Shown: positions 10,556 to 44,887, counted from the stretch's first letter. The stretch: DNA of 64,000 bases from Nanobdellota archaeon (GCA_038046365.1 JBBSWF010000020.1:14201-78200), one strand, 5' to 3'. Numbers and translations are program-made. The notes: generated by a model not told the origin, from the letters alone.

Positions 10556-13500
10556 ATGGAAAGCCAAGACAGCTTCCAAGCCCGACAAGTAGACGAAAAC
10601 CTGGCAGAATGGGCAAGAAGCCAGGATGGAGGTAGCGAAAGCTATGCATTTACACCACCTTCTGCCCCGATCGCCTGGAGATCCCACCATAGGGAACACC
10701 TCGCAGAGGTCTTAGGCGCACAGCCAAAGGATCCGAGCAAGCTGCAGCTGGCCATCGGCGTGGTCGTGCCGCTGATGTTCATCATCGCGACAATAATGAC
10801 CCTCGCGGACCCGAGCATAACAGGACTTGTCGCTTATTCAGAGCGATCCATAATCGAACTGAACGCGACGATAACAAGCTCGAGGAATATCACGATCGGG
10901 CTAAATGACATACCAATGAGAGTGAGAGTAAGCGGAATGGCGACAGGAAACGTGTCCATCATCCATAGACCCAGCGGCAGGAAAATGTTCGAGACAGCAA
11001 GCCCAGGGATTGTGGCTCTGACAGAAGAATGCGGACAAGCCTGCGCAAGACGCGACTATTCTAGCTCGGCGGACCCGCCAAGATACAACCTCACACTCGA
11101 GGTCTCTATCGGAGAAGGAGCTGAACTGAACATAACAACTATCGGATACACTTTCACACCCGCGAACAGACAGCCATTGTTCAACAGGAAACTCGCCAAC
11201 CTCACAGCCACTGCCAAGACAACTACGAAAATAGACCTAGCAGGATACGCGAAAGACCCGGACAACGACTCCATCACTTTCATCGCCACGAACTCGATGC
11301 TGGCAGACATCGAGGTGCATGGAAGCATCCTCCAGATAATCCCCAAGAAAAATGCGACAGGCCCCACAAGGTTCGTCGTATACGCATCTGACACGAAATC
11401 GATATCAAGAGTGACAGTCAACCTCGATATCAGACAAGACATTGGCACGGACGAGGCCGCAGCGATAAACGCGCCTTTTGAAATAGAACCCGACCTAGTA
11501 GAACAAACACAACTGGAAGACGGGACGCCAGTCATAATCGAGCTTGAGGAGCCGCAAGAAGCTCTCGGAGAACTGATCAAGGCCGCAAAGATAAAAGAAG
11601 AACAGACCCTGCTTGACACAAAAACAAGCGATGAGAGAGTGAACGTGAAGAGAAGATACAAGAACATCCCGGCAGTATCCGCAGTCATGACACAGGAAGG
11701 CCTGCAAGACCTGCTGTCGAACCCGAACATCAAAGCAATCAGAGCAGACGAAGAGTTCTCAATTAGCATCACAGACGAGCTCAAACAGGTCCACGCAGAG
11801 CCGCAAGCAAGGATCATGCCCGACGGGACGCGGCTAGATGGCGAAGGCAAGACAGTATGCCTCATCGACACAGGAGTCCAGACCACCCATCCAGACCTAT
11901 TAGGAAAGGTGATCGGAGGATACAACTCAATAGACAGCCCCGAATATAGCTCGACAGACATATCTGATGACAACGGACACGGGACAGCAGTGGCAGGAAT
12001 AATCGCCGCGCCAGACGGTATCGCGCCGATGGCAATGATATTCCCAGTGAAGGCGTGCGGCAAGACCGGTTCCTGCAAAGCAAGCGCGATATTATCCGCG
12101 ATAGATGCATGCATCGGGGCAAGATCGACTCATAACATAACAGTCATCTCAGGAAGCTTCGGCGATGGATTAGCTCATACTGCAGGCGACTGCCCTGACA
12201 CGCTTGGAGCCGCGATTACCGCTGCGCACGACGCCGGGATGACCATGACATTTGCAGCTGGAAACAACGGTTACCTCGACGGAGTGAACTACCCTGCCTG
12301 CGACGGGCGAGCGATATCAGTAGGATCATCCACGCAATACGACACACCGACTAGCTTCACCAACAAAGGATCAAAGACAGACCTTCTCGCACCAGGACAG
12401 AATGTCACAACCACCATGATAGGCGGAGGATGGGGAGAAGCAAGCGGGACAAGCATCAGCACGCCATTTGCGGCAGGAGCGGCCATGATAATCGCCCAGG
12501 GGCTAGAGCTCACAGGACGGGGTGCCACCCCAGAGGACGTGAAGAACCTGCTGATGAACTACAGCGCCAAAGCGATGGGAATGCCAATGCTCGACCTGTC
12601 GGCAGCGATAGCCGCAGCGACAGGGAAGAGCGAGACACCGATTCCCATCAATGGGACACCGACAAGCCCGGCTGGAAACGAAACACAGACAATCGCAGCG
12701 GAACAACACGCAGGATCCATCCAAAAACCACCGGAGAACCAGCGGAGACTAACAGGCGGCGCCAAACCAACACCATCTTTCACACCAGCCTTGGGGAAAA
12801 CAAGCGCGCTAGTCACGAGACAGATCGAGACAGAAGGAAAAGCCGACGTCATAATCGAACTTGAACTGCCTAACATCACAATGAAAGATGGATTCGGCGT
12901 GATGTCACTCAACCAGGGCAGAGCGATGACAAAAGATGGACTTAAGGACGCAGTCGGCAGGGCACAGAGATCATCGCTAGAAGGGATGAAGACTGCCTTG
13001 AACGGAACATTCGGGACGTTATCATCTGATGAAGACATATCGATCACCGACCAGCCAGAATACTTGCCATTCATCACAGGGACCGTGAGCGCGAGCGGGC
13101 TTGAGAAACTGAAATCAACCCGATCCGTGAAAGCGATACACCCCAACCTCATCAGAGAACTGCTGCCCACAATAATAGACCCAGAGCCAAAGGCTTCATT
13201 TGACATCAGCCTCCCGACTATAGGGGCATTATACGCAAGAGATACACTAAACTACACCGGACTTGGCGTGAAAGTAGCGATAATCGACTCAGGAGTGGAT
13301 TACACGCATCCAGACCTTGGAGGATGCACACGCGACCAATTCCTCGCAGGAACATGCGCGAAAGTTCCGACTGGATACGCTTTTTGCAATGCCACCAACT
13401 GCGGAAGAGACCCCGACCCAATAGACCAATTCGGACACGGAAGCCACATCGCAGGGATCATCGGAGGCACTGGAGTAGGCGGATTAAAAGGCATAGCGCC

Positions 13501-16500
13501 GAACGCGACATTCATCGCCATCAAATCATGCAATGCGACAGGAAGCTGCCCCGACGCATCGGTCATCGCAGGCATCGACTACGCAATCTCGCATGGAGCT
13601 GACGTGATAACCATGTCGCTTGGCTCAGTGCCGATACCAAACGACGGGTTGGACGTGATCGGGCAAGCAGCATCGTCAGCAGCCATGATGTACTCAATAA
13701 CAGTGGTCGCTGCCGCAGGGAACTCCGGGCCAGGGACAGGATCTATCGCGACACCTGCCGCAGGGCAAGGCGTGCTGTCTGTTACTGCATCAAATGACGC
13801 CGGAACGGCCGCGGTGAGTGACGACACGATCGCGTCTTTCTCGGATCGAGGACCGTTAGCGTTCGGACGGTTCGGCCCAGACATCAGCGCGCCAGGAGTC
13901 AGCATAAACTCCACAGTCCCACAGACCAGTCAATGCCCGTATTCAACCGTACTGTGCTCGAATACAGGATACAAAGTCAGCTCAGGGACCTCATTTGCAA
14001 CACCACACGTCACGGGAGCCGTCGCGTTGCTGCGCGAGCAAGACAAGAACCTAACGCCCGCTGAGATAAGATCCATCCTGATGAGCAGCGCAGCGAGCAT
14101 AAGCGGGCACCCGTTCGACAAAGGAGCAGGACTCATCAACGCCACAGGCGCGCTGACTCGCGCGACAAGGATGCTAATAGACGGCGCCGAGAAAGGAAAT
14201 CTAGAATCGATAGCAGGGGAATACGCAGAGTTCAACATCACAATAGTGAACAAGGACTCCGTGTCAAGGACCATCACACTGACAGCCGAGAACATCAGCG
14301 AGCCTGATGGCAACAACTCCATAGCAGCATCGTGGGACCTGCCACTGCCATTCACAGCGCCAGGAAACAACAACACCACAGTCAGATTGAGAATGAAGAC
14401 CAACAGCGGCGCGACGCCTTCGGTATACGGGGGGACGATTATTGCCACAAGCGATCTTAGCGAGACGATGAGAACGCCATTTACGCTGACAGTCCCGCTC
14501 TATGGAGACGGAACCATCTCGATGAGGACATCAGACAGCTCCACATCGTCAAAGACCGGAGACATATTCTACTTCAAACTTATATCGCCAAACGCGAGCG
14601 GATTCACCACTTACTTATCATGGCCGGACCCGCAATACGACATGGACATGTACCTATTCTCAGAAGGCGGCCTGCTGCTGACGTACAGCGCAGGGCTTGA
14701 CGACCCTGAATGGGTTGGCGCAAGCAACATCTATGAGAAGAATTACTGGGTCGCGGCAAACTCGTATTATGTGCCATCATCAGGAATGAGCTTTGAGGTG
14801 GCGACAGCGTACAGCAGCAACCTGACTATCATACCCAACACCATCCAGGCCAGCGCGGTCGCAGGCCAGACAAAACAGATGACGTTTGCGATCAGGAACG
14901 GCCTTGGACCAAAGAACATGACCATCGCGCTGACACGCCTGCAAGACAGCGAGAGCGTCGACACGACAAGGACAGCCCCTGCAGGGGGCAATGACTACTA
15001 TTCATTCACAAGGAACGGACTTAATATATCTGGAATGAAGACCTGCGACGTAATAATCAACTGGACAGGCGGCGCTGACCTAGACCTGTCATACTACACC
15101 TCCAATGACGGCGGCTCGACAAACACGACACGCCTTCCTTCGAGCGCACATGACAACGGAGCGCTTAACCAGACACGCGAAGCATTGATCGCGCACGATG
15201 TCGGATTCATGGCCGGTTATTACAGCGAATGGGGCGTAAGGACATACAACAAGAACAATTCTGCGACACAATACAACCTCACAGTAAGATGCAAGAGCAA
15301 CAAGCCCGCTTCAGAGGCCAGCGTGTCACCATCATACATACAGACAATGAACAACAGCCAGGAAATCAACATTACAGTGAATGTAGACACAACCGATCTA
15401 GCGCCAAATTCATCCATCGCCTATATGCTCGTAGCAAGATACAATGACACACGCGAATGGGCCCATTCAGCAGTGACCCTCACAGTCGCAGCAGCCCCCG
15501 GCGTCCACGCCGCCAATGGAGAATATGACGGAGGCACGATCAACCTTAGCAACGTGGCAGACATCACGAACATACCAGATATGACACTTGAAAAGACAAC
15601 CATTGGCAGGATCAGATGGAACGGGCCAATCGACGCGCGCGACGCCAACTTCACCAGATACACCACTATAAGCGCAGGCCTGATAGCAGTGAACGCGTCT
15701 GTCCTCCACCGCAGCATAAACAGCAGCGCCAACATCACTTTCTATGGAGCATCATGCGCAGGATATAAACTGCTGACTTCCCGAGGATATATCCCAGACA
15801 AAGAGGAAGCGACAGAATCCGGAGACATATGCAACGCGACTAGCGACCCGGCCTGCAGCAGCATCGCATGCAGTGGCAACACCCTGACGTTCCAGGCAGA
15901 CCATCCCACCACATTCGCGCTGCTAAACGGAATCACCAACTCTATTATCACCACGTCAAGAATAGGAGAATCAAACCTCACCGACGCCAACATCACAGAT
16001 TCCAGGGTCAATTCATCGGACATCACACTGTCTAGCATCAAGAACGCAAGCCTAACCAGAAGCATCGTGAACCGAACGACAATCGACAACTCCACATTCA
16101 TCAAATCGAACGCGACTGGCTCCAACATAAACATCAGCAGCGTGAACAACTCTGACGTGCTCAACTCCACGCTGATCGAAGTCAACATGAAGGACTCGGT
16201 CGCGGCATGGTCATACATAGACCCGTCCAACATAACAAACTCCACAGTCAACAACAGCTTCGTTGAAGACTCTGAGATAGACAACAGCTCGATATATGAC
16301 TCAAACGCAACTAACTCCACAGTGAATGCATCGTTACTGTCTCAAGCAGACGTGCGCAACTCCACAATAAAGGGGTCGACAATACACAACACCAGCATCA
16401 ACAACTCCAGAATCGAGAACTCCACAATATCAAACGGAATCAACATCAGCTGCGGGCAGACACTCACCGAAAACATAAACCTAAGCTTCAACGTGGTCGG

Positions 16501-19500
16501 GCACACCCCATGCTACAATGCCGGCGCAGACTCAATCACAATCAACTGCAATGGATACACAGTGACAGGCACAGGCAGCGCGCCAGTCATCAATATCACA
16601 GGACGGGCAGGGGTAAATGTACTCAACTGCAACTTATTTGGAAACAACGCAATCGCGATCACAAGGTCTAACAGCAGCAGCATAACTAACGTCAGCGCAG
16701 GATGGGGAACCATCACTATCTCAGGGGCATCATCGAACAACACCCTACAGAGAGCCTCAAACATCAGCGCCCTCACCATTGGAGACGACGCGTCATACAA
16801 CCGCATGAACAACATCAGCCTATCCACACTGACAGTGAGCGGAAACTGGAACAACATCACCAACAGCAGCGTGAACCTGACCGCAACGGTCTCCGGAGCC
16901 AACAACACCATAACCGGCAGCTCAATGCAATCCGGCGGAAACATCATCACGATCAGTGGATCCGGCCACCTCATAGCCAACAACACAATAAGCGGAAACA
17001 TCGCCGCAGGACTCCTCTCATCCACCAGGATCAGCGACAACAATATGACAAACGCATGCGTGGGATCAATTGCGGCCGTGCCAAGAAATGACATCACCAT
17101 CAGCGGCAACAGGCTGCTCGCCTGCACGGGAGGCGCGGTAGCAATCAACTTCGAACCGATCCAAAACACAAACTTCACCGTCGCCAACAACCAGATACTA
17201 TCATCTGACAACCCCTTGAACCTAGTGGGCGGAAACGACTGGAAAATACTTGGCAACACATTCAACTATTCCGGCCCGATAACCCTGACAAGCTCAAATG
17301 GCACTCTATTTGCGAACAACACAGTCAACAGCCCGGTCAACGCGATAGCGATAGACATCTCCAACCTGACAGGTTCAAGCATCAGGGAGTCGACTATAGC
17401 TAACGGCAGCGAAGGAAGCATTGGGATAAGGCTGAGATCATCGATCGAGAACGGCACGATGGAGAACCTGGGGATAGACAACAACACAATCGAAGGGTTC
17501 ACCAAGTGCGTGAGCACTTCGACCGGAGAGGACTACCCCGAGAGGCTCAACGGTACAAGCATATACGGCAACAAATTCCACTCCTGCGGAATCGCGATAG
17601 AACTAGAGGCCAATGCCACAGGAGCCAGCGCAGGCGGAATGAGAATCCTACACAACCGGGTCACGTCGACTAGCACGGCGTTGAAGCTTCGGTCTGCTAG
17701 CGGAGCAAGGATCGAGAACAACGCATTCAACGCAACAGGCAACACAAGCATCCTATTGATAGACAACCTGAATGCCACTATGATAAACACAACAATCACA
17801 GGCACCCTCAATGGAATCTCGATCATAAACACCAGCGGAATTATCACCAGATACCTCCAGATATACAACGCCACCTCATGCGCAGTGCTACTAAACCGCA
17901 GCAATGGAGGAATACTAACAAACCTCACTATCAACACCACATCATCTAGCATACATATCACCGGAGGAATGAACCACACGATAAACGAGACGAACGCGCC
18001 GCACCCAGTCATCCTTGAGAACGCGTCATACAGCATCATAAACTTCACAGCGCAGGTCAACTTCACGGCCCAATCCCCAATATCGTCTATTGTGAACCTA
18101 TCAGACAACTATATCACAATAAACTCTACTCTCGCGCCGCAGTTCAACATAAGCGCCATCCTAACCGCATACGTCTCATTCAACGAAGCCGTCCCAGGAA
18201 TAGACCAAGAAGACGACGGAACATTGAGCACCTGCCCGCTGACGCGATGCACCACGATAAGCCAGACAGGGTCGATATTCGTGTTCAACGTGACCGGATT
18301 CACAAGCTATGGAGGAATATCGCCAACCCCCGGATCAGTAATCGTGAACTCCACCATAAACGGAAGCATCGTATCGAACAGCACAGTGAATAACGCGACA
18401 GTCACAAACTCGACAATCAACAGGAGCGTGATAACAAACAGCACAGTCCACAACAGCACAGCATCCAACTCCAGCATCATCAACTCCATACTTGGCAACT
18501 CCACCCTGACCAACTCCACGCTCACAGGGTCATACGCGAACGCATCGCAGATGCCGATCGCACAGATCCTAAACAGCACAATAATATCCGCTCTTGTCAA
18601 CAGAACAAACGCCGAGAATAGCTCGATTCGATTCTCCAACACCACATCATCGATAATAAATGCCTCGTCGGTCGATAACTCATCAAGTACCACAAGCAAC
18701 CTGACCACCAGTATAGTGAACCTATCCACAGTCTCAGGATCGATAATATCCAACAGCAGCGCATACTCATCTAACATCAGCGGATCAATATCGGATAATT
18801 CCACAATACACAACTCAAACCTGTCTCTATCGAACGCCAATACAAGCAATATAGACCTGTCCGGACTCTCAAATACCACCGCCTACGCTAGCAGGGTAAA
18901 CACCAGCTCGACTGCCAACGCCACCTTGATTCGAACCAACCTCACACTCGCCAACATCAGCCTGGCAACCCTCGAGAACAGCTCAGTCCAGAACAGCACC
19001 ATACTCCACGGCAGAATCACGTCATCCACCCTACTGAACTCTACTGCGAGCAACAGCACAATCACCGTGTCCAGGATAGTGACATCGATAACAGACAATT
19101 CCACGCAATTATCGACGAACCTGACGCGGAGCCTGATGAATGCCTCGGTGAGCGAGAACTCCAGGATGACAAACACAACATCAATGGCAAGCAATATCAA
19201 TTCGACAACAGCAGACAACACCACGACCGCAGACAGCCGTCTTGAACAGAGCACAACCAACACCACACGGTTGTATGGCAGCACCCTTGGCAACTCAAGC
19301 GCGATCCGGTGCATAATCAACTTGAGCCAGGCATATAACTCCACACTAGCAAACAGCACGATCCTACTAGCCACAGTAAACCTGAGCGCACTTGATAACT
19401 CGAGCGCATGGCAGTCCAACATAACGGAGAGCACAGTCAACAAATCGCTGTCAGACACGAGCTCGATCTACATGAGCGTTATAGCGAACGCACAGCTCAA

Positions 19501-22500
19501 TAACACGGTAAGCGACAACAGCACCGCGTCCAACATCAGCTCGACCAACTCGACGATAAACTCCAGCATCGCAGTTAACCTAACGTTGATCGAGTCCACG
19601 CTCATGTCTGCTAACGTCAACAGGACATACGCGCACAACATAACCGCGACCAACTCCACAATAAAGACCAGCACGATCAACAACTCCAGAGCAGAGAACA
19701 GCACGATCATAGGAAGCAACCAGACCTGGTCGGATGTCAACAACAGCGACGTGCGCAACTCGACAATCTACAGAGCGAATGTCACCGCATCTGTCGTGGC
19801 AGGAAGCACGGCCGTGAACTCCTCCATAAACCAATCCGATGTGGTGAACTGCAACCTCACAAACGTCACTGTGCACAACTCCACACTCTTTGGCGAGACG
19901 ATCATCAATGACATCGTAATCAACAGCAGGAGCCTGGCCGCATGCGGGAAGGTGATAGGGAGAGACGCTATAATGAACCAGAACATCACGTGCGACGGAG
20001 CAGCCCTCATATTCAACAGATCGAACAATAGAGTATCATGCCAGGGATTCCTGATCCAAGGAAACGGGACATCTACAGCCATAGAGATCAGATCAAAACC
20101 CAACTCAAGCGCAGACGCATGCATAATAACAAACTACTCCATCGCCATATCTGTAAATGATACAAATGACACCACCCTAACAAATATGAAGATAGACCAA
20201 AGCAGGATAGGGCTGCTAATATCCAATTCATCTAACGTCACGATCGGCAACATGACAGTGACAATGAGCACACTGGTCGGCGCGCTAATAGACCCCTCAG
20301 ACAACATAACCATAGAAAACAGCACTTTCGCCGGAGGCGTGAACCCGATCATCTTGCTAGACACCAACAACTCCAGAATAGCATTCAACCTCATAGAGAA
20401 CTCCACAGGAGGCCTGAACCTGACAAACAGCTTCAACAACCGCATCCACAACAACACCATCCGCAACAACTCAGTCAACATCAGGCTAACAAGCGGCACG
20501 GGCAACATCATATACGACAACTTCCTTAGCGACGCAAAATCATTGCACATCTTCGCCGGAGCAGGCAACAACTTCAACACCAGCGGAGCATCTGGAGGAC
20601 ATGGAAACCGGTTCGACAACACCATCGCGCTTAGGATCTACGACCAGAACGGAGACGGCTATGGGGAGAGAGGATGGGACTGGCCATACAACTCAACGAA
20701 CAATGGAACAGTCAACATAAACGTGAGTGACTTAGGTCCCATCACAAGCAGACAAGACCAGGCACCGGTGCAAGTCGGAGCGTTCAATATAGTAGAGATG
20801 ATCTCCGGCGGGACCTACAATCAGATCGACCTTGACGGAGTATTTAGCGATCCTGACGGCGATCCACTCAACTACACGGTAAGCGGAAACAACAGCCTGG
20901 GAGTCACAGTCGATGCAGTGACACACGTCGTATACATATCGGCACCAGGCAATTTCACCGGAACTCAAATAGTCACATTCATCGCCAATGACAGCATATT
21001 GGCAGTGTCCGCAGGCCTGACCATCAACGTCGCCGCAAGCGCCCCACCGCCATCCACGCCGCAAGGATCACAAGGACAAGGACTAGCCGGACCAAGCGCG
21101 GAAGATACAGCAGGAGCAGACGCGGCAGCGGCGGCAGCAGCAGCGGCTGCGGCAGCAGTGACAGCAGCGGCCCCAGCAGTGACAGCCGCAGCAGCGGCCC
21201 CAGCAGCAGCGGCCGCACCATCGCCACCCTCATCAGTATTCGCCCCGACAGTCACAGCTGAATCATTCCGAAACATGATCGAGGGCATCAAGAAGACCGA
21301 AGACACCCCTGTAGCATGCGGATACAGGACAAAAAAGACTATCGAGAAAGAGGTCGTGCCCACCAAGACCAATCTCACGCAAGTGAAGCTGCCAGAAGGA
21401 TACAAAATGGCCACCGACCCGTTCACGTTAAGCTGCGACGGCGACTCGCTAGACCTCACACTGAACGTGCCTGCCGGATTCACAGATCTCAAAGCGCTCA
21501 GGTGCAAGAAAGACGGCTGCACCAACATCATTGAGAAAGAGGTAACCACAAAAGAGCTTGTATGCGGAGGCAAAACAGTCACCCAGATCAGACAAGAGGA
21601 GATCACGCAGCGCAAAGAGTCGCTGGCGCTAGAAGACCTCGGAGTGATAATCGAAGAAGGAACGACAATCACAAATGCAAAGAGAGCGATCCAGAGCGGC
21701 AAGAACAGGCTCGAGTTCACAAGAGAGATTCGCGTGCCATTCCAAGCGAAGATATCATCTCCAAAAAGCTCCGTTCCTTTGCCGAAGAACCCGAGCGCGG
21801 CGATAATCGGAACGCCGCTGGAGGTGACACTGCGCAATGCGCAAGGGCCGCTCGCGGCAAGGATCACACTGCCATACATCAAACCCGAGAACTACGACCA
21901 GGACAGCTTCGCAATATTCGCCCTAACAGATGGAGAATGGGAATACATTGAGAGCAGCACACGCGATGAGAACAACCAGAAGATCAGCGCGGAGACAAAC
22001 GACCTCCTCAAATACGTCCGAAACGGAGTCGCGCAATTCGCAGTCATCGGAACAGGATGCGCGGCATGCCAACAATCCAAACTAGCACACACATACTCGC
22101 ATGAAGGCGCGCGCGCAGCCATAATACTGCTACATGGATTCGCATCAAGCCCAAAGACATGGCAATTCCTAATAGACGAAATAGCGCTTACAAACCAGCC
22201 ATACCAAGTATACACATTCGAGTTTAGCGCATCAAGGCCGATGATGACAACAACCCGCGAATTCATGGACCTGATGGAGCTTGAGAGCGGACAATTCGAC
22301 ACAGCATACATCGTCGCCCACAGCCTTGGAGGGTTGATCACACAAGAAGCCCTCCACCAGTCAGAACTCGCAGGCACCAAATACACATGGCTTCCAAAAG
22401 TCAAGAAAGTCGTGCTCATAGGAACGCCTAATGACGGCACCCCTGGAGTTGACGTGTTCCAAAACCTGTTCCAGAGCCTTGTGAATGAGAAGAGCGTCTT

Positions 22501-24367
22501 TAACCTGTTCAATCTCAACAGCCAGGTGATGGGAGAACTGTCAAAAGGGATGCAAGTCCAAAGGACCCCCGGCATCAGATACTACGCGATAGCCGGGACA
22601 AAGCCATACGAATTCAACCTTGGAGCGTTCACAGTCTCTACCAAGGAACTCTTCAAGCTCGTGCTGCCAAACGATGGGATCACTACAACAGCATCAGCGC
22701 AGCATGTCGGAGGGCAATACATAAACGACAGCTGCAAGAACTACTACCAGATAAACCTCACGCACACAGACCTTGTCGACAACCCATTATCCAGAAGAGT
22801 CATAGAGAGAATAGTCGGAGAAGACCAGTACAAACAGACCGGGACGGCGCTAGGATACAACCAATACCTGAGGCTACAGATCGAGAAATGCGACCCGCAA
22901 GAACAGATAGTAATCATCGGAAAACCGATCAAGCCAGCGGAAGAACCTGCCCCGCTTGGATGCAACTGCGGAAACGGAGTGTGCGGAGTAGACGAGACGC
23001 CCGAGACCTGCCCCCAAGACTGCTCCGCGAAGATAGAAAGGCCCGCTCAAGAGATCGCGACAGAGGTTGCGGTCTATCTTGTAAGCACGCTGGTGTTGAT
23101 ATTCATACTATACCGAGCATTCAGGATACTCAAGAGGCGCGAGACCAAGAAGTTCTACACAAAGGAAGAACCGTACATCAAGACAGAAGAACGCGTGCAG
23201 ATAATCGGCGCAGCAGGCATAGAAAACATGGCTGCGCCGCCAATTCGGCCGAAACCATATGGATACGAAACCCTCCCCGCGAACGAGAAGCTGAGAATAG
23301 ACCTCGCCGACCTTGAAGAGGACCTCGACCGCGTGCTAGACGGGAAACCCAAACGACCAGTCTTCTACCCGCTTGAACTCAAAGAAGAGATAGATTCCAT
23401 CAAAAATAAACTTGAGATCAAGATCCCTGAGAAGAGAGGCGAAAGAAAGAAAGAAGCGCCTGTCCCTCCCCTGATAGAGACTTCTGAGATACGGAAGAGA
23501 ATCGAAGAGCTAAGGAACCAATATCCGCTCGCGGGCGGAAAGAAGCTTGAAGCGGCTGCCAGCTCAACTGAAGGCGCCACGCAACTTGGCAACGCGATCA
23601 AACGCGGATTGGCATCGATTCGAGAGGAGATATCAAGGATGCTAAGCGGAAGGCCTCCCCCAGCAGCCGAAGACGAGAAAGCCGAAGAAATCCATACAGA
23701 CAATACTGAAACGCCCGCGCCAAGACCGAAGAAAAGACGCATTGAGCCAAAACCACCTGAAGAACCCGCCTCAAAGAAGCTCGGATGGAAAGACGATGAG
23801 AGAGAAAAACTGCTGCAGCTGCTAGAAGAGGCGAGGAACCAGACCAGGAGAGTGTCTTTGGCGAAACAATCCCGAAGGAATGAGGAACTCGCGCGCAAAG
23901 AGCCGCCAAAGATCAGCGCGATGATCAAAGGCGAGCTCGACGACCTCTTTGAAGACACCAAACGGCTAATAGACGGCGCGATACTGCGGACCAAAGATAA
24001 GAGAGAAGAGAAGAAGAAAGAATGGAAGAAAGAGATCAAACTCAACGAAGCCAAAACAGAAAAAACACCCAGGCGAGAGAAGATAGACCTGAAAACGGAA
24101 CTGAAACCGGTTCCAAAGACTGAGAAAACCATTCCCGCGAAGCCTGCGCCAAAGCCGATCAGCAGACCGGCAATCCACCCAAGACCCGCGCCTGCTAAAA
24201 GTATCATGCCGGCGAAATCACCGCCGAAGAAGAGAGAAAGCAGCGTCTTTGGCGCTGAACTCTCCGGACTCGCAGACGAAGCAGAGCGACTCCTAGGACT
24301 CACTGACAAGATCAGCCGCAAGGCTGAGGAATCACAGAAGGCCAAGCGCAAGATGGAGAAGAAGTGA
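10556..24367 (+). CDS. Giant (4,603-aa) multidomain cell-surface protein. In order it contains an N-terminal signal-anchor TM, two subtilisin-like (S8) peptidase domains, beta-sandwich domains, a very long N-x-S/T-rich right-handed parallel beta-helix (PbH1-type) region, an Ig-like D-x-D-G-D module, a poly-Ala/Pro linker, an alpha/beta-hydrolase (GHSLGG lipase-like) domain, a Cys-rich module, a second TM helix and a K/E/P-rich cytoplasmic tail.
   Basis: Uninterrupted 13.8-kb ORF. The first S8 triad is DTGV(Q) (about nt 11865), HGT (about 11980) and GTSISTP (about 12450). The second is IIDSGV (about 13285), GHGSHIAG (about 13440) and SGTSFATPHV (about 13990). PbH1-like repeats include NNSRIAFNLIENSTGGLNLTNSFNNRIHNNTIRNNSVN. 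The lipase-like domain has LLHGFASSP plus AHSLGG (22130–22335). TM helices lie at about 10745–10810 and 23065–23125. Confidence 0.85.
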   Translation: MESQDSFQARQVDENLAEWARSQDGGSESYAFTPPSAPIAWRSHHREHLAEVLGAQPKDPSKLQLAIGVVVPLMFIIATIMTLADPSITGLVAYSERSIIELNATITSSRNITIGLNDIPMRVRVSGMATGNVSIIHRPSGRKMFETASPGIVALTEECGQACARRDYSSSADPPRYNLTLEVSIGEGAELNITTIGYTFTPANRQPLFNRKLANLTATAKTTTKIDLAGYAKDPDNDSITFIATNSMLADIEVHGSILQIIPKKNATGPTRFVVYASDTKSISRVTVNLDIRQDIGTDEAAAINAPFEIEPDLVEQTQLEDGTPVIIELEEPQEALGELIKAAKIKEEQTLLDTKTSDERVNVKRRYKNIPAVSAVMTQEGLQDLLSNPNIKAIRADEEFSISITDELKQVHAEPQARIMPDGTRLDGEGKTVCLIDTGVQTTHPDLLGKVIGGYNSIDSPEYSSTDISDDNGHGTAVAGIIAAPDGIAPMAMIFPVKACGKTGSCKASAILSAIDACIGARSTHNITVISGSFGDGLAHTAGDCPDTLGAAITAAHDAGMTMTFAAGNNGYLDGVNYPACDGRAISVGSSTQYDTPTSFTNKGSKTDLLAPGQNVTTTMIGGGWGEASGTSISTPFAAGAAMIIAQGLELTGRGATPEDVKNLLMNYSAKAMGMPMLDLSAAIAAATGKSETPIPINGTPTSPAGNETQTIAAEQHAGSIQKPPENQRRLTGGAKPTPSFTPALGKTSALVTRQIETEGKADVIIELELPNITMKDGFGVMSLNQGRAMTKDGLKDAVGRAQRSSLEGMKTALNGTFGTLSSDEDISITDQPEYLPFITGTVSASGLEKLKSTRSVKAIHPNLIRELLPTIIDPEPKASFDISLPTIGALYARDTLNYTGLGVKVAIIDSGVDYTHPDLGGCTRDQFLAGTCAKVPTGYAFCNATNCGRDPDPIDQFGHGSHIAGIIGGTGVGGLKGIAPNATFIAIKSCNATGSCPDASVIAGIDYAISHGADVITMSLGSVPIPNDGLDVIGQAASSAAMMYSITVVAAAGNSGPGTGSIATPAAGQGVLSVTASNDAGTAAVSDDTIASFSDRGPLAFGRFGPDISAPGVSINSTVPQTSQCPYSTVLCSNTGYKVSSGTSFATPHVTGAVALLREQDKNLTPAEIRSILMSSAASISGHPFDKGAGLINATGALTRATRMLIDGAEKGNLESIAGEYAEFNITIVNKDSVSRTITLTAENISEPDGNNSIAASWDLPLPFTAPGNNNTTVRLRMKTNSGATPSVYGGTIIATSDLSETMRTPFTLTVPLYGDGTISMRTSDSSTSSKTGDIFYFKLISPNASGFTTYLSWPDPQYDMDMYLFSEGGLLLTYSAGLDDPEWVGASNIYEKNYWVAANSYYVPSSGMSFEVATAYSSNLTIIPNTIQASAVAGQTKQMTFAIRNGLGPKNMTIALTRLQDSESVDTTRTAPAGGNDYYSFTRNGLNISGMKTCDVIINWTGGADLDLSYYTSNDGGSTNTTRLPSSAHDNGALNQTREALIAHDVGFMAGYYSEWGVRTYNKNNSATQYNLTVRCKSNKPASEASVSPSYIQTMNNSQEINITVNVDTTDLAPNSSIAYMLVARYNDTREWAHSAVTLTVAAAPGVHAANGEYDGGTINLSNVADITNIPDMTLEKTTIGRIRWNGPIDARDANFTRYTTISAGLIAVNASVLHRSINSSANITFYGASCAGYKLLTSRGYIPDKEEATESGDICNATSDPACSSIACSGNTLTFQADHPTTFALLNGITNSIITTSRIGESNLTDANITDSRVNSSDITLSSIKNASLTRSIVNRTTIDNSTFIKSNATGSNINISSVNNSDVLNSTLIEVNMKDSVAAWSYIDPSNITNSTVNNSFVEDSEIDNSSIYDSNATNSTVNASLLSQADVRNSTIKGSTIHNTSINNSRIENSTISNGINISCGQTLTENINLSFNVVGHTPCYNAGADSITINCNGYTVTGTGSAPVINITGRAGVNVLNCNLFGNNAIAITRSNSSSITNVSAGWGTITISGASSNNTLQRASNISALTIGDDASYNRMNNISLSTLTVSGNWNNITNSSVNLTATVSGANNTITGSSMQSGGNIITISGSGHLIANNTISGNIAAGLLSSTRISDNNMTNACVGSIAAVPRNDITISGNRLLACTGGAVAINFEPIQNTNFTVANNQILSSDNPLNLVGGNDWKILGNTFNYSGPITLTSSNGTLFANNTVNSPVNAIAIDISNLTGSSIRESTIANGSEGSIGIRLRSSIENGTMENLGIDNNTIEGFTKCVSTSTGEDYPERLNGTSIYGNKFHSCGIAIELEANATGASAGGMRILHNRVTSTSTALKLRSASGARIENNAFNATGNTSILLIDNLNATMINTTITGTLNGISIINTSGIITRYLQIYNATSCAVLLNRSNGGILTNLTINTTSSSIHITGGMNHTINETNAPHPVILENASYSIINFTAQVNFTAQSPISSIVNLSDNYITINSTLAPQFNISAILTAYVSFNEAVPGIDQEDDGTLSTCPLTRCTTISQTGSIFVFNVTGFTSYGGISPTPGSVIVNSTINGSIVSNSTVNNATVTNSTINRSVITNSTVHNSTASNSSIINSILGNSTLTNSTLTGSYANASQMPIAQILNSTIISALVNRTNAENSSIRFSNTTSSIINASSVDNSSSTTSNLTTSIVNLSTVSGSIISNSSAYSSNISGSISDNSTIHNSNLSLSNANTSNIDLSGLSNTTAYASRVNTSSTANATLIRTNLTLANISLATLENSSVQNSTILHGRITSSTLLNSTASNSTITVSRIVTSITDNSTQLSTNLTRSLMNASVSENSRMTNTTSMASNINSTTADNTTTADSRLEQSTTNTTRLYGSTLGNSSAIRCIINLSQAYNSTLANSTILLATVNLSALDNSSAWQSNITESTVNKSLSDTSSIYMSVIANAQLNNTVSDNSTASNISSTNSTINSSIAVNLTLIESTLMSANVNRTYAHNITATNSTIKTSTINNSRAENSTIIGSNQTWSDVNNSDVRNSTIYRANVTASVVAGSTAVNSSINQSDVVNCNLTNVTVHNSTLFGETIINDIVINSRSLAACGKVIGRDAIMNQNITCDGAALIFNRSNNRVSCQGFLIQGNGTSTAIEIRSKPNSSADACIITNYSIAISVNDTNDTTLTNMKIDQSRIGLLISNSSNVTIGNMTVTMSTLVGALIDPSDNITIENSTFAGGVNPIILLDTNNSRIAFNLIENSTGGLNLTNSFNNRIHNNTIRNNSVNIRLTSGTGNIIYDNFLSDAKSLHIFAGAGNNFNTSGASGGHGNRFDNTIALRIYDQNGDGYGERGWDWPYNSTNNGTVNINVSDLGPITSRQDQAPVQVGAFNIVEMISGGTYNQIDLDGVFSDPDGDPLNYTVSGNNSLGVTVDAVTHVVYISAPGNFTGTQIVTFIANDSILAVSAGLTINVAASAPPPSTPQGSQGQGLAGPSAEDTAGADAAAAAAAAAAAAVTAAAPAVTAAAAAPAAAAAPSPPSSVFAPTVTAESFRNMIEGIKKTEDTPVACGYRTKKTIEKEVVPTKTNLTQVKLPEGYKMATDPFTLSCDGDSLDLTLNVPAGFTDLKALRCKKDGCTNIIEKEVTTKELVCGGKTVTQIRQEEITQRKESLALEDLGVIIEEGTTITNAKRAIQSGKNRLEFTREIRVPFQAKISSPKSSVPLPKNPSAAIIGTPLEVTLRNAQGPLAARITLPYIKPENYDQDSFAIFALTDGEWEYIESSTRDENNQKISAETNDLLKYVRNGVAQFAVIGTGCAACQQSKLAHTYSHEGARAAIILLHGFASSPKTWQFLIDEIALTNQPYQVYTFEFSASRPMMTTTREFMDLMELESGQFDTAYIVAHSLGGLITQEALHQSELAGTKYTWLPKVKKVVLIGTPNDGTPGVDVFQNLFQSLVNEKSVFNLFNLNSQVMGELSKGMQVQRTPGIRYYAIAGTKPYEFNLGAFTVSTKELFKLVLPNDGITTTASAQHVGGQYINDSCKNYYQINLTHTDLVDNPLSRRVIERIVGEDQYKQTGTALGYNQYLRLQIEKCDPQEQIVIIGKPIKPAEEPAPLGCNCGNGVCGVDETPETCPQDCSAKIERPAQEIATEVAVYLVSTLVLIFILYRAFRILKRRETKKFYTKEEPYIKTEERVQIIGAAGIENMAAPPIRPKPYGYETLPANEKLRIDLADLEEDLDRVLDGKPKRPVFYPLELKEEIDSIKNKLEIKIPEKRGERKKEAPVPPLIETSEIRKRIEELRNQYPLAGGKKLEAAASSTEGATQLGNAIKRGLASIREEISRMLSGRPPPAAEDEKAEEIHTDNTETPAPRPKKRRIEPKPPEEPASKKLGWKDDEREKLLQLLEEARNQTRRVSLAKQSRRNEELARKEPPKISAMIKGELDDLFEDTKRLIDGAILRTKDKREEKKKEWKKEIKLNEAKTEKTPRREKIDLKTELKPVPKTEKTIPAKPAPKPISRPAIHPRPAPAKSIMPAKSPPKKRESSVFGAELSGLADEAERLLGLTDKISRKAEESQKAKRKMEKK

Positions 24368-24470: not shown

Positions 24471-24518
24471 GGGAATTTCGCAAAAAATGAGGCCAAGCCG
24501 AATTTTTGCGAAATTCCC
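24471..24518 (+). terminator. Perfect 16-bp stem hairpin (gggaatttcgcaaaaa / tttttgcgaaattccc, 16-nt loop) downstream of the giant gene.
   Basis: Exact reverse-complement arms, read from the sequence. Confidence 0.45.
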
Positions 24519-24541
24519 AATCACACTCCCAGAAGTGGGGG

Positions 24542-24614
24542 GTGGAAAGCCATCAGGACTACCCCAGGTACCGCAAACAACACCCGGGAAAGATGGCTTT
24601 CCACTTTCTTTTTC
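24542..24614 (+). terminator. Perfect 13-bp stem (gtggaaagccatc / gatggctttccac) followed by the T-tract tttctttttc. It resembles an intrinsic terminator.
   Basis: Exact reverse-complement arms plus a downstream oligo-T run. Confidence 0.45.
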
Positions 24615-24667: not shown

Positions 24668-24828
24668 CCGCCGCGGCATGAGGCGGCACGACGGCCGTGC
24701 CGCTACCGCGTCACGGCCTAGCCACCACCCCGGAGGGGGCCATCTGGAAATCGCTTGCGATTTCCAGGGGTTTGCTTCGCCCTGCTCGCAAACCAACCCC
24801 CGGACCATCGCGCGCCATGCCGCGGCGG
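24668..24828. ncRNA. Candidate structured non-coding RNA of about 161 nt. It is closed by a 13-bp terminal helix and has at least three internal perfect hairpins. Class and strand are undetermined.
   Basis: The ends pair as ccgccgcggcatg and catgccgcggcgg. Internal stems are gcggcacg/cgtgccgc, ctggaaatcg-CUUG-cgatttccag (a CUUG tetraloop) and ggtttgc/gcaaacc. The element is about 64% GC in a roughly 50% GC genome and contains no credible ORF. Confidence 0.45.
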
Positions 24829-30589: not shown

Positions 30590-30800
30590 GGCTATGCGGG
30601 ATGGCGCGAATAATGGCGCGATTAGAAGCCTGTTTTCTCGTCCATAAAATAATAATCGCGCCAAAACTATGGCGCGAATATGGCGTGATTGTGGCGCGAA
30701 TAATCGGCGTTTCTCGTCTATAAAAAAACCTAATCGCGCCATCGGCATGGCGCGAATATGGCGCGATAGTGGCGTGATAATGGCGCGATAAATTCAATAT
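30590..30800. repeat. Intergenic array of about ten roughly 11-nt direct repeats (core TGGCGCGAATA / ATGGCGCGA). They are organised as two larger units of about 90 bp, each with an inverted repeat ggcgcga(t/a)ta ... taatcgcgcc around an A/T-rich spacer.
   Basis: Read from the sequence. The spacing is irregular and there are no unique spacers of uniform length, so it is not CRISPR-like. Confidence 0.6.
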
Positions 30801-38434: not shown

Positions 38435-41266
38435 ATGAGTAATATGCCTAAAGCGATTATCCCTCCAGAACAGAACGAGACGGAATCGCAGACCCGGATC
38501 ACCAAAATCAATGTCTCCCTTGAAGAGGCTGGCTGGAAAGTTCGAAGCAAGGCCATGGTCTGGGAAGAGGCAGATACCTTACAGTCAGATTTCAGGAGCG
38601 GAAACTACCTCACCCATGATGACACTTATGAAAATGAACAACAAAGCCGTTACGCAGATTATCTCCTCCTTGACTCAAAAGGTAATCCGTTGGCGGTAAT
38701 AGAGGCAAAAAAGACGACCAAGGACCCAGTAACCGGGCAAAAACAGGCAGAGGGCTACGTTGACGATATCAAGAAACAGACCGGGAAAGACCTGTTTATC
38801 TTCTTCACAAACGGTTATGAAATCTGGTTCTGGAACAGGCCATATGAGAACCCGCGATTAGTGAAGGGATTCCATAGCCGAGAAGACCTTGAGAACATCC
38901 GATTCCAGAACGAATCAAAGAAGGAGCTGTCTGACATACCTATCAGGACTGAAATCGTCAACCGCCCTTATCAGATTGAAGCCGTGAAAAGAGTCCTTGG
39001 AGGAATACAAAAAGGCAAAAGAAAATTCCTGATAGTCCAAGCCACTGGAACCGGGAAGACAAGGGTCGCGATGGCCTTGATTGATATATTGAAACGCTCG
39101 CATCGCGCAGAGCGGATCCTATTTCTCGCAGATAGAAAAGCCCTGAGAGACCAGGCATTTGATGAAGGGTTCAAAGAATGGTTGCCTGAAGAATCCCGGT
39201 CAAAGATATTTGGAGGAAGCCTTGATAAAAACGCGAAACTCTACGCTTCTACAATCCAGACATTTATGGAATGTTACAAGGAGTTCTCTATCGGCGCTTT
39301 TGACCTGATAATCTCTGACGAAGCACATAGGTCGATCTATAACAAATGGAAGGAGGTGTTCACGTATTTTGACGCAATCCAGATCGGTTTGACCGCAACC
39401 CCCTCAGATCTTATCGAAAAAGACACGTTCAAGTTCTTCCAGTGTGATGGGCAGCAACCGACCTTCCTGTATACATACGACCAAGCGAAAAAAGAAGGGT
39501 GGCTATGCGACTTCAAGCGATGGGAAGCGCAGACACATTTCCAGATCGAAGGAGTCAAGCCATCAGACATCCCAGACTCGATAAAGGCAAGACTAGCAGA
39601 GCAGGGCCTTGACGAGGAGGATATGGCCTGGGATGGGTCCTCCATAGAAAAAGAAGTGGCGGTGGTCGGCACGAACGAGGCTATCGTCAAGGAATTCATG
39701 GAGAACTGCATCAGAGACGAGACTGAAACACCTGCAAAAACTATAATATTCGCTGTGTCAAAAAAACATGCGAAAAGGATCTGGGAAGCTTTCGAGCGTC
39801 TCCATCCAGAATATAAAGGCAGACTTGCCCGGATAATAACCTCGGATGACAGCAGCGCGCAAAAGTTGCTGAAAGATTTCAAGACCGAAACGTACCCGCG
39901 GATAGCCATCTCGGTAGATATGCTAGACACAGGCGTAGACATCCCAGAGGTATGCAATCTAGTATTCGCCAAACCGGTCTTCTCCAAGATAAAATTCTGG
40001 CAGATGATCGGACGTGGCACAAGGAATGACGAAGCATGCAAAAAGAAAGAATGGATGCCTGGAGGTAAAAAAGAGTATTTCCTGATATTCGATTTCTGGA
40101 ACAATTTCGAGTTCTTCCAGATGAAGCCAGCTGGAAGAGAAGAAAAACCGACTGAAGCGATCGCTACCCGAATATTCAGGACACGGATCGAACAATTGAA
40201 GGATTTCATAAGCCAGGGAGATAAGAAGAGAGCCGACGAGGTCAAGAAGAGAATAAATCAAGACATCACGAGCCTTCCGCTGAAATCCGCATCATTGAAA
40301 GAACATATGAACGATATCGAAACCGCACTATCAGACGACTTCTGGGATAACGTAGGGATCGAACCAGTTAAATTCCTATCAGAGAGGATCAGACCATTGA
40401 TGAGGTTCCAGACAGATATCAATCTCAACAAGGCATCGTTCATACTGAAATGCGAGAGGCTCGGACTGGCAAGCCTACGCTCAGAAGAGCAAGGCATGGA
40501 AGAGCTAAAGGAGGGTATTGTGGCAGACATAAACCTCCTGCCAAAAACTCTCGACAAGGTCAAGGACAAGAAAGAGATGATATCCCGGGCGGTCAGCAAA
40601 GAATTCTGGGAAAAAGTCTCATATGATAACGCACAAGAGTTGATACGAGAACTCGGACAGGTAATCACATACAAGAGGAAAGAGGTCAAGAAGACTATCG
40701 TGCTGGACATAGATGATGTCGTCAAGCAACGCCGACTCATCGAGTACGGCCTTGAACCAAAACAAGAGTATGTCGATACCTATATCGAGAAAGTCGAGAG
40801 CCATATCAAGGAATTGGCGAGATCTGACACCACGATCAAGAAGATAGAAGCCGGCGAGCCGCTCGATGAAGAAGACCTCACCAAACTCGAAAAAAAGCTC
40901 AACAGCCCAGAGCTTTTCATAACCGAAGAAGTCATGCAGAAAGCGTATGAAAAGAGCAAAGGGACGCTGGTGCAATTCATAAAAAAGATACTCGGCCTCT
41001 ATGAGTTCCCTGACCCCAAGAAGCGGATCGAAGAAGAATTCAAGACCTTCATGATCGCGAACAACCAGTCTTACAACGCGGACCAGATCAATTTCTTACG
41101 GGCCATACAGACAGTCTTCGCAAAGAAGAAGCACATAGAATACGCCGACCTGTTCGACCCGCCATTCACGAACTTCGGGACACAGGCACCGGTACCCCTA
41201 TTCTCCAAAGAACAGCTCATCGACATAATCAAGCTATGCGATGAACTGGAAAATGAAGTTTTTTAG
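38435..41266 (+). CDS. hsdR: Type I restriction enzyme R subunit (HsdR), superfamily-2 helicase/nuclease.
   Basis: N-terminal [19 protein letters not shown]. Motif I is [10 protein letters not shown] and motif II is a DEAH-like ISDEAHRS. The length is 943 aa. Confidence 0.85.
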
Positions 41267-41267
41267 A

Positions 41268-41304
41268 TATTTGTTTACAAATCTAGCTTATTTGTAAACA
41301 AATA
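41268..41304. promoter_or_regulatory. 15-bp perfect inverted repeat (tatttgtttacaaat-ctagctt-atttgtaaacaaata). It lies between the hsdR stop and a TATA-like box (41306–41318) upstream of the RHH gene. It is a candidate operator/C-box and/or the hsdR terminator.
   Basis: Exact reverse-complement arms at 41268–41282 and 41290–41304. Confidence 0.55.
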
Positions 41305-41336
41305 GATATTTATAATAGATTCACTAATCGGCCTAT

Positions 41337-41756
41337 ATGACTTCACAAGAGTGGACCACCATATCTGTAAAGGTGACCAAGCAACAGAAGCAACTCATCG
41401 AACGGATATGCGAAAAGAATGGCAAGTCGGTCAACAAGCTTCTGAGCGGAATGATAGAACGGGAACTCAAACCTATGAGTGACCCCTCGTGTTTCCCAGA
41501 AAACCAGGGGATACCCCTAATCGGCGAGAACCGATTCTCCTACCTGCCTGAGAAAGACCAGTTCATCTGGAAGATAGATCTTGGCGTCCACGGATCCTCA
41601 ATACTCAGCGAAGAAGTCACGCCCGCATACCTTAAGAGCCTGTCCTCTGCAGTAGCGGAAGGCATCAAGCAGAGAGAGGATTTCAACGATAAACTGAATA
41701 GGGGCGCGGTCGTCCCGAAGAAACTCATCAAACTTGGGGTGAAACGCCGATGTTAG
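41337..41756 (+). CDS. Ribbon-helix-helix (CopG/Arc-like) DNA-binding protein embedded in the R-M operon. It is a candidate controller.
   Basis: N-terminal TISVKVTKQQKQLIERICEKNGKSVNKLLSGMIEREL fits a strand-helix-helix pattern. It overlaps the hsdM start by 7 nt. Confidence 0.5.
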   Translation: MTSQEWTTISVKVTKQQKQLIERICEKNGKSVNKLLSGMIERELKPMSDPSCFPENQGIPLIGENRFSYLPEKDQFIWKIDLGVHGSSILSEEVTPAYLKSLSSAVAEGIKQREDFNDKLNRGAVVPKKLIKLGVKRRC

Positions 41757-44568: not shown

Positions 44569-44768
44569 AACAATCTGATCCGCATAAGGCAGTGTGTAGG
44601 GTATGCAACAAGAAGTCCAAGGAATCTCCTTGCGAGAACTGCGCATATCTGATAAAAAATGGCGCAAGCGAAGAAACCATCAAAAAGATGCTAGGAGACA
44701 AACGAGTCAACAAGATATGGGAAGAGAACAAAGAAACTACGGATTCAACACATTCTGCGAAGGCATAA
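44565..44768 (+). CDS. Small zinc-ribbon-like protein (CxxC..CxxC), translationally coupled (ATGA) to the AlbA_2 gene.
   Basis: CRVCNKKSKESPCENC motif with the start overlapping the upstream stop. Confidence 0.45.
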   Translation: MKQSDPHKAVCRVCNKKSKESPCENCAYLIKNGASEETIKKMLGDKRVNKIWEENKETTDSTHSAKA

Positions 44769-44770
44769 AC

Positions 44771-44887
44771 ATGACACTGGATATAATCATGCCGCTGCTG
44801 GACAAAGAATCACAAAAGAAAATCAAGGCAAAAATACTTATGATGATGGAATCGAGATACATGCGCAAGGAGAAGAAGAGAAAATGA
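44771..44887 (+). CDS. 38-aa micro-protein MTLDIIMPLLDKESQKKIKAKILMMMESRYMRKEKKRK. A diverged paralog exists at 54745..54861.
   Basis: Protein-level conservation with a second 38-aa ORF despite diverged DNA. It is ATGA-coupled to the downstream gene. Confidence 0.45.
   Translation: MTLDIIMPLLDKESQKKIKAKILMMMESRYMRKEKKRK

Follow-up and report, generated by a model that had tools for sequence, protein, structure and literature searches.

The DNA analysed here (the window) is a 64,000-nt stretch from a Nanobdellota archaeon (GCA_038046365.1, JBBSWF010000020.1:14201-78200), and our subject is a 161-nt, G+C-rich element that a first-pass annotation, made from the sequence alone, had marked as a candidate structured non-coding RNA (ncRNA). 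As that annotation said, the genes on either side of the element are convergent; the spacer that separates them is 482 nt long. On the plus side the gene for a 4603-aa surface protein ends at 24367 (+), and on the minus side the gene for a 598-aa HD-domain protein ends at 24850 (−). The letters at 24668–24828 were as described. The composition was not; we measured 71% G+C in the element, 52.5% in the 2-kb flanks and 46% in the remaining spacer, where about 64% against about 50% had been given. The longest open reading frame (ORF) across the element is at most 62 aa, and gene callers on the source contigs predicted no gene there, in agreement with the earlier view that it holds no credible ORF.

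As an inverted repeat, the arms CCGCCGCGGCATG and CATGCCGCGGCGG are perfect over 13 bp; they make up the closing helix of the first-pass annotation. Elsewhere in the 64 kb this 13-mer has only two-mismatch matches, and a similar number was obtained in shuffled sequence. Three hairpins occupy the interior of the arms. All three had been called perfect; two of them are, and the third, an 11-bp hairpin at 24693–24718, has one mismatch. The hairpin at 24769–24794 is a perfect 7-bp stem (GGTTTGC/GCAAACC) with a 12-nt loop, and that at 24744–24767 is a perfect 11-bp palindrome, which on the plus strand reads as the 10-bp stem with a CUUG loop that had been reported, whereas the likely minus-strand RNA reads CAAG. 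Both strands folded far better than dinucleotide shuffles, with a minimum free energy (MFE) of −89.7 kcal/mol (z −5.3) on the plus strand and −104.6 kcal/mol (z −6.5) on the minus strand, and none of 200 shuffles folded as well on either. The entire 64 kb contains five perfect hairpin-type inverted repeats of at least 13 bp, three of which fall within the element's spacer.

Homologues of the element and covariation of its helices

The synteny of the HD-domain gene and the giant surface-protein gene is common to three relatives, here L006, L003 and L004. The HD protein is also present on Hainich groundwater contigs (well H52, 0.2 µm fraction) entered at NCBI as 'MAG: Nanoarchaeota archaeon', and a search of GTDB genomes with it gave no match. 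L006 (JGI Ga0074195_1011099), which was reached via an 85-nt conserved block neighbouring the element, carries a longer version at the orthologous position. In both the window and L006 the element begins 21–22 nt past the stop codon of the HD gene, on the same strand. L006 shares with the window the closing helix, the motifs CCGGGGGTTGG and CCTCCGGGGTGG, the loop GAGCnnnGCGAA and the positions of the three hairpins, yet its stems all differ: GTTTGC/GCAAAC has become GTTGCC/GGCAAT, CTGGAAATCGC has become AGAAGGCC, and GGCCGTGACGC has become GGGCATTTGCC. Between window and L006, coding DNA is ~83% identical and the flanking spacer ~50–68%, near the level of unrelated sequence, and motif A, motif B, the L1 loop and GGCG/CGCC are identical. 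L006 has in addition a 29-nt hairpin, and its 5′ rod strand is present twice. The two copies (L006 3549–3591) compete for one 3′ strand.

The two other relatives lack the full element. In L003, whose HD protein is 72% identical, only the rod remains, as a decayed 20-bp helix; alignment to the covariance model deletes 135 core positions and scores 19.6 bits. L004, whose HD protein is 79% identical, has only CCGCTGCGGCGG, a 4-bp G+C hairpin and then TGTTTTCTTTT, the hairpin at this site being followed by the U-tract tail UGUUUUCUUUU. The element is accessory and not housekeeping, since at this locus several close relatives have lost it or never had it.

A homologue at an unrelated locus was found by scanning 185,579 GTDB species with the pattern CCGGGGGTTGG-N40-70-CCTCCGGGGTGG, both motifs exact. 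The scan yielded one archaeal match, L010 (PCXZ01000023.1, Woesearchaeota archaeon CG10_big_fil_rev_8_21_14_0_10_44_13), and three bacterial matches that we rejected as chance: L007 and L008 lie in high-G+C DNA, and L009 reads as an ABC-ATPase gene (encoding LSGG...PTSGV). In L010 the surrounding DNA is AT-rich and the element stands out as an island of 72% G+C; it is placed between a divergent orc1/cdc6 gene and SerRS, some 40 nt downstream of the cdc6 TATA box, TTTATATA, and has a G+C-rich 5′ extension of ~90 nt. The closest cdc6 relative, L021 (83% identical), has an extension of the same type, within which its contig stops; a hairpin of this extension is compensated, CAAAUC/GAUUUG having become CACAC/GUGUG. 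In L010 and L021 alike the element is oriented away from both neighbouring genes, with a TATA box ~40 nt before it. Within the L010 extension (3057–3145), the first strand GCCGCGGGTGGCGGTT nearly repeats, in direct orientation, the 3′ strand of the element, GCCGCAGTGGTGGCGTT (3271–3287), and either is able to pair with the middle strand CGCCACCGCGGC. These competing strands, and those in L006, suggest possible alternative conformations.

Six other Woesearchaeota cdc6 loci (65–79% identity) have no element, and there the promoter is ~40–100 nt from the next gene or separated from it by an unrelated insert. The insert is found in L018 (2790–2960, the same in L019), where ~170 nt of different sequence separate the next gene from the cdc6 TATA box; it has a hairpin of ~17 bp (AACCAGATTTTTCTCCC...GGGGGGAAGAAAATCTGGTT) and, by covariance model, no similarity to the element. 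The presence of the element at two unrelated loci requires mobility in the wider sense, whether by gene transfer or by relocation.

The window, L006 and L010 copies were combined in a structural alignment, which was built by hand with N padding so that MAFFT stayed gap-free, and from which the 29-nt insertion of L006 was taken out. The fold consists of a rod that joins the ends (P1, a 4-bp GGCG:CGCC helix and P2) and opens into a three-way junction. One arm of the junction is helix AB, formed by motifs A and B, which bears hairpins H1 and H2, the sequence of H2 being free; the other is H3, reached through a single strand of 11–12 nt that opens with the invariant GGUGG of motif B. The parts are listed in Table 1.

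Table 1. Parts of the element, with window coordinates and the observations on each
Feature	Coordinates	Strand	Observation
Whole element	24668..24828	-	Rod, three-way junction and three hairpins; covariance model R1, 125.7 bits
P1 5′ strand CCGCCGCGGCAUG, closing helix	24816..24828	-	Perfect 13-bp inverted repeat
P1 3′ strand CAUGCCGCGGCGG	24668..24680	-	Partner of P1 5′ strand
Inner rod 5′ strand: GGCG, then P2 CGCGAU	24807..24815	-	Helix 2, RNAalifold
Inner rod 3′ strand: P2 GUCGUG, bulged C, invariant CGCC	24681..24692	-	Alignment, RNAalifold
Motif A CCGGGGGUUGG	24793..24803	-	Invariant in three homologues; CCGGGGG forms 7-bp helix AB with motif B
Hairpin H1 GGUUUGC/GCAAACC, loop GAGCAGGGCGAA	24769..24794	-	4 of 7 pairs changed on both sides
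Hairpin H2 CUGGAAAUCGC-AA-GCGAUUUCCAG	24744..24767	-	5 pairs changed on both sides; 100% paired
Motif B CCUCCGGGGUGG	24725..24736	-	Invariant; CCUCCGG is partner of motif A
Hairpin H3 GGCCGUGACGC-GGUA-GCGGCACGGCC	24693..24718	-	One A.G mismatch; 6 pairs changed on both sides

Across the six helices (56 pairs, 153 cells), 98.0% of cells were paired, and 19 of the 56 pairs had changed on both sides in these three hand-fitted sequences, so that the covariation in homologues for which the first-pass annotation had called was found. None of 500 column shuffles matched any of the five measures, and when the 3′ partners were slid by 1–3 columns pairing fell to 39–54%, with 0–3 double changes. P1 keeps its pairs in L006 and L010, with two double-sided changes and a G.U in place of G-C at a third position. 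The inner rod (GGCG:CGCC with P2) also has two double-sided changes; 96% of its cells are paired, and the window copy contains two G.U pairs. The first G of GGCG (24816) belongs to P1 as well, and CCGCC, which holds its invariant partner CGCC, is kept in the window, L006, L010 and L003. The GGCG:CGCC helix is flanked by irregularities, which in the window and L010 lie in the 3′ strand (a loop of 2–4 nt and a 1-nt bulge) and in L006 take the form of a 3×4-nt internal loop. Helix AB shows no variation, hence no double-sided change, and includes a conserved G.U. The 12-nt H1 loop is conserved with the consensus GAGCnnnGCGA. RNAalifold, run without a supplied structure, returned the same six helices plus a 2-bp GC/GC stem inside the H1 loop, where the facing G-A/G-A could form tandem sheared G.A pairs. 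The stems have drifted at about the neutral rate and have nevertheless stayed paired, with the junction motifs unchanged, a pattern that bears the signature of selection on the fold.

The same alignment bears on the polarity of the element. Reading the minus strand gives nine G.U cells and one A.C cell, whereas on the plus strand these nine are mismatches; leaving out P2, the count is about 5 to 0. Folding energy favours the minus strand in the window, by the values given above, and in L010 (−83.8 against −78.0). We conclude that the RNA strand is likely the minus strand of the window, an assignment that is moderately supported but not proven.

Comparison with known families and competing explanations

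We compared the element with described RNAs. Searches with Rfam 15 (4227 covariance models) gave no match at gathering score in the 64-kb window, L003, L004, L006 or L010, and at E≤10 the spacer and the element alone gave only chance matches of at most 15 bits to microRNA and bacterial small-RNA models. The first-pass annotation had matched the element to no known family by eye, and these searches agree. Of the identities it had proposed for a structured ncRNA the novel class is best supported, the element being conserved and multi-helical. An RNA like that of the signal recognition particle (SRP) or of RNase P is rejected: the SRP, RNase P and 5S models have no match at E≤10 on the element alone, for 5S neither in the window nor in L010. 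In the window and eight loci ARAGORN, which does not model archaeal non-canonical introns, called no tRNA, and by eye there was no UUCRANY T-loop. Threading by eye onto tRNA, permuted tRNA, hepatitis delta virus (HDV)-like, H/ACA, C/D, K-turn, SRP helix 8, RNase P P4 and selenocysteine insertion sequence (SECIS) folds found no consistent fit, and we treat these as leads only. A bulge-helix-bulge was rejected on the structural alignment, which lacks two opposite 3-nt bulges around a 4-bp helix. A retroelement or OMEGA-type guide RNA was likewise rejected, since no reverse transcriptase, TnpB, IscB or IS110 gene occurs in the window. Literature searches on structured RNAs of DPANN archaea or Woesearchaeota yielded papers on group I and II introns and retroelements only, none describing this motif. 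In composition and manner of discovery the element recalls the Hgc RNAs of Methanocaldococcus (Rfam HgcC/E/F/G), orphan G+C-rich ncRNAs that stand out as composition islands in archaeal intergenic DNA. It too is a G+C island (71–72%) in DNA of lower G+C, compact and multi-helical, and was found by composition and structure. It differs in having no match to the Hgc models, in its mesophilic groundwater DPANN host of 44–50% G+C, and in its patchy occurrence.

Our preferred interpretation is that the element is a member of a small, undescribed family of structured RNAs in Woesearchaeales-type DPANN archaea. On the sequence comparisons above we put the probability of this claim, taken as a whole, at roughly 0.55; that of any specific mode of action is much lower. 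The family would be new in the narrow sense that the element fits into none of the RNA families or repeat classes so far described, and no claim about mechanism is implied.

Several observations weigh against this interpretation. The element is patchy: at the orthologous site L003 and L004 lack it or have it in decayed form, it is absent at the six cdc6 loci, and the exact-motif scan of 185,579 GTDB species gave a single archaeal match; such a distribution is as compatible with a dispensable or mobile element as with an accessory gene. There are only three full sequences, and their alignment was fitted to the structure by hand, so that the covariation figures are optimistic. Nearly all hairpin pairs are perfect Watson-Crick pairs and five of nine loops are C-GAA-G, which forms a very stable mini-hairpin in DNA and could plausibly be a GNA triloop in RNA as well; these stems and loops leave room for a role as single-stranded DNA or as a selfish palindrome. 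The polarity argument is open to similar objections. L006 folds better on the opposite strand (−104.1 against −97.8), so that a choice of strand by MFE only is inconsistent across the three homologues; P2, the source of two of the G.U pairs, was found while the minus strand was being read; and G.T pairs are tolerated in single-stranded DNA hairpins as well. Finally, no archaeal promoter or oligo-T terminator could be confidently assigned in the window.

We also considered that the element has no function of its own and is a cis-acting 3′-end structure, a cluster of terminator or mRNA-stabilizing hairpins that protects the HD or giant-gene transcript or stops read-through. Its site, just past the HD stop codon and between convergent genes, is what one would expect of such a structure, as of an intrinsic terminator. 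Some hairpin occupies this position in the window, L006, L003 and L004, with a simple hairpin and U-tract kept in relatives, and in L010, where the element has the end of a small gene on one side and the cdc6 promoter on the other, an insulator is plausible. The element nonetheless differs from an intrinsic terminator in having 56 bp in six helices and conserved non-helical motifs, and at the L010 locus the G.U pairs favour a polarity antisense to both neighbours. In archaea, termination depends on oligo-T tracts and not on hairpins, whereas neither in the window nor in L006 or L010 does an oligo-T run come directly after the element; a scan for the terminator consensus made no call at the element's ends on either strand, the sole internal call being H2 on the plus strand, with the weak tail GGTTTGCTTC. 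The unpaired or invariant motifs of 11–12 nt are identical across genomes of 44% and 50% G+C and at unrelated loci, which argues that the element is not a generic terminator cluster, the fallback that the first-pass annotation had offered. We therefore consider a purely cis-acting role unlikely, though not to be neglected.

A low but appreciable probability also attaches to the view that the element is selfish or mobile palindromic DNA, with hairpins recognized as DNA and G+C palindromes between genes as its insertion sites: a miniature inverted-repeat transposable element (MITE), a repetitive extragenic palindrome (REP), or the remnant of a hairpin-ended single-strand transposon. Its presence differs at orthologous loci in both clades, its ends are inverted repeats containing the palindrome CCGCGG, end strands are partially duplicated in L006 and L010, and the stems and loops noted above suit a DNA hairpin. 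REP elements, bacterial interspersed mosaic elements (BIMEs) and MITEs are likewise G+C-rich palindromes at the ends of convergent genes, variable among strains and able to stabilize transcripts. Unlike them, the element occurs once in the DNA searched and shows no target duplications and no cognate transposase nearby. No second copy was found when the element was compared by blastn with the window and the loci, by fuzzy motif search of 236 kb, or by covariance model in 137 kb of archaeal DNA (including the 64-kb window) and 294 kb of other loci, a statement limited by the fact that the window covers ~6% of a genome assumed to be ~1 Mb. The flanks show no target-site duplication (ATCAAC|...|ATTTAA in the window, ATCAAC|...|TCCCGA in L006 and AATAGT|...|TTATCA in L010), and the window contains no transposase. 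Phage and plasmid collections held no match to the element. In IMG/VR, an internal 24-mer was unmatched and other matches were chance ones in high-G+C phage DNA; later motif matches there were rejected by the covariance model.

The 'empty' sites of L003 and L004, which read CCGCCGCGGCGG and CCGCUGCGGCGG, would at first seem to favour insertion. However, CCGCGG is present in both P1 strands, and a deletion between these two direct repeats would give exactly these short sites, which need not therefore be empty insertion sites. Conservation is also distributed in the wrong way for such an element, the internal unpaired motifs and not the termini being most conserved, across distant genomes. The strongest point against a dead insertion is that the orthologous copies of window and L006 have diverged at about the neutral rate with every helix still paired, through compensatory changes; this requires selection on this copy.

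The remaining explanations fare less well. That the element is a small catalytic or mobile RNA of a new kind, such as a self-cleaving ribozyme, is improbable on sequence grounds. Hammerhead, twister and hatchet ribozymes combine invariant junction nucleotides with varying helices and a patchy distribution, and the element resembles these and the twister-sister, pistol and HDV-like ribozymes in having invariant junction nucleotides amid arbitrary helices and a sporadic occurrence; the third strand that pairs alternatively with the rod in L010 and L006 would also suit such an RNA. Against this, no Rfam ribozyme model was matched (Hammerhead_II reached 14.9 bits in L010 only, below its gathering score of 37), no catalytic core is recognizable, the CUGAUGA core being absent in the window, no cleavage site could be inferred, and no repeat or retroelement is associated.

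A divergent universal RNA, such as a 5S rRNA with an insertion, a reduced SRP RNA or RNase P, or an intron-bearing or permuted tRNA, is very improbable. As in 5S rRNA, a G+C helix joins the ends, the helices meet in a three-way junction and the first arm begins with a G-rich helix, and by eye the strings GGGGUUG and UCCGGGG resemble haloarchaeal 5S strings; no 5S, SRP, RNase P or tRNA gene was detected anywhere in the 64-kb window. Yet its first arm is branched (H1 and H2), it lacks the loop C/E consensus and, beyond the negative searches above (RF00001 among them), it is 140–190 nt long, dispensable in relatives, deleted or decayed at the same site in some of them and rare across GTDB, which is a misfit with an essential RNA. 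Least credible is an origin-associated DNA structure, which would account for the element adjoining orc1/cdc6, directly upstream, in L010 and L021, but the six other Woesearchaeota cdc6 loci lack it, the window has no orc1/cdc6, and the element contains no repeated motifs like origin recognition boxes.

Other features of the spacer and the window

Beside the element, at 24528–24612, lies the block of ~85 nt through which L006 was reached. It is 100% identical in the window, L004 (5321–5461) and L006 (~3255–3340) and has one change in L003 (2417–2512), in a context where the nearby spacer is ~55% and coding DNA ~83% identical. A 13-bp stem, GTGGAAAGCCATC/GATGGCTTTCCAC, encloses a CCCGGGU/ACCUGGG stem that has its G.U on the minus strand. 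The block had no Rfam match, and a 27-nt probe from it matched only L006 in JGI metagenomes. Its very strong constraint makes it a candidate for a second RNA or for a protein-binding site.

A perfect 16-bp hairpin, GGGAATTTCGCAAAAA / TTTTTGCGAAATTCCC, occupies 24471–24518. Its equivalent in L004, GCGATTTTGGAAAAA / TTTTTCCAAAATCGC, shows several compensatory stem changes, and L006 has there an unrelated hairpin followed by TTGTTTTC. On the minus strand this hairpin looks like the terminator of a transcript crossing the spacer.

The HD-domain gene itself differs in L004, where a TGA (5036–5041) stands in place of the Trp codon of the window at ~25006 (PSQR*SINELL against PSQRWSIDELL). The 50 codons past this TGA are in frame and nearly identical to the window. 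A nonsense mutation of very recent date, an error in sequencing or the reading of UGA as Trp could each account for it.

On the other side of the spacer, positions 10556–24367 form a single 4603-aa ORF in which, judged by eye from its translation, there are apparent subtilase-type protease regions, long Asn/Ser/Thr-rich repeats and a Lys/Glu-rich tail. The composition of this ORF alone gives the cumulative GC-skew a minimum near 23–29 kb, and the minimum is therefore no evidence of an origin. In the spacer after the HD_4 gene, 11 copies of TGGCG[C/T]GA lie at 30600–30790, nine of them direct (in runs with 11-nt phasing) and two inverted, with AT-rich separators. This array is conserved in L004 (1231–1410) and looks like iterons, an operator or an origin-type array of protein-binding sites. 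A complete type I restriction-modification system (HsdR, HsdM, HsdS) occupies 38435–46705; its hsdM and hsdS genes are separated by an inserted Schlafen/AlbA_2-HATPase_c_4 gene. Together with TrmB, the C39 peptidase and HD_4, the restriction-modification genes are consistent with a DPANN archaeon.

A candidate RNA family and its possible mode of action

If the element is indeed a structured RNA, its invariant junction and loop nucleotides would be the functional site, which probably serves to bind a protein or another nucleic acid. The parts that could form a binding surface are the CCGGGGG:CCUCCGG helix with its G.U, the single strands UUGG and GGUGG, the GAGCnnnGCGA loop, and the bulged GGCG:CGCC helix. 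Shape, nuclease resistance and high stability would be all that the interchangeable G+C helices and the rod that seals the ends contribute. The RNA would thus probably act through its junction core, by binding protein.

How the RNA is made may differ between loci. In the window and L006, the element's place just past the HD stop codon and on the same strand means that it would be part of the 3′ end of the HD mRNA, and the RNA may be made as, or cut from, that end; alternatively, it may start at a weak A-rich box inside the end of the HD gene. In L010 and L021, where the element is antisense to both neighbours, it would need a start of its own, which could lie beside the cdc6 TATA box.

A bolder proposal is that the element is the founding member of a new autonomous class of DPANN RNA, either a self-cleaving or some other catalytic RNA, or a mobile RNA gene that moves between intergenic sites. 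Its active-site core would be CCGGGGGUUGG, GAGCnnnGCGA and CCUCCGGGGUGG, and the third strand of L006 and L010 would be a conformational switch. From what the sequences suggest, we regard this proposal as doubtful.

To our knowledge, hardly any ncRNAs have been described in DPANN archaea apart from rRNA, tRNA and a few introns. The seed alignment and covariance model obtained here can be run over archaeal genomes and groundwater metatranscriptomes. An invariant core with free helices, found patchily at unrelated loci, is a signature of the kind that earlier led to new ribozymes, protein-sponging RNAs and the guide RNAs of mobile elements, and in the tiny genomes of DPANN archaea a structurally selected, G+C-rich RNA of 160–230 nt is unlikely to be idle.

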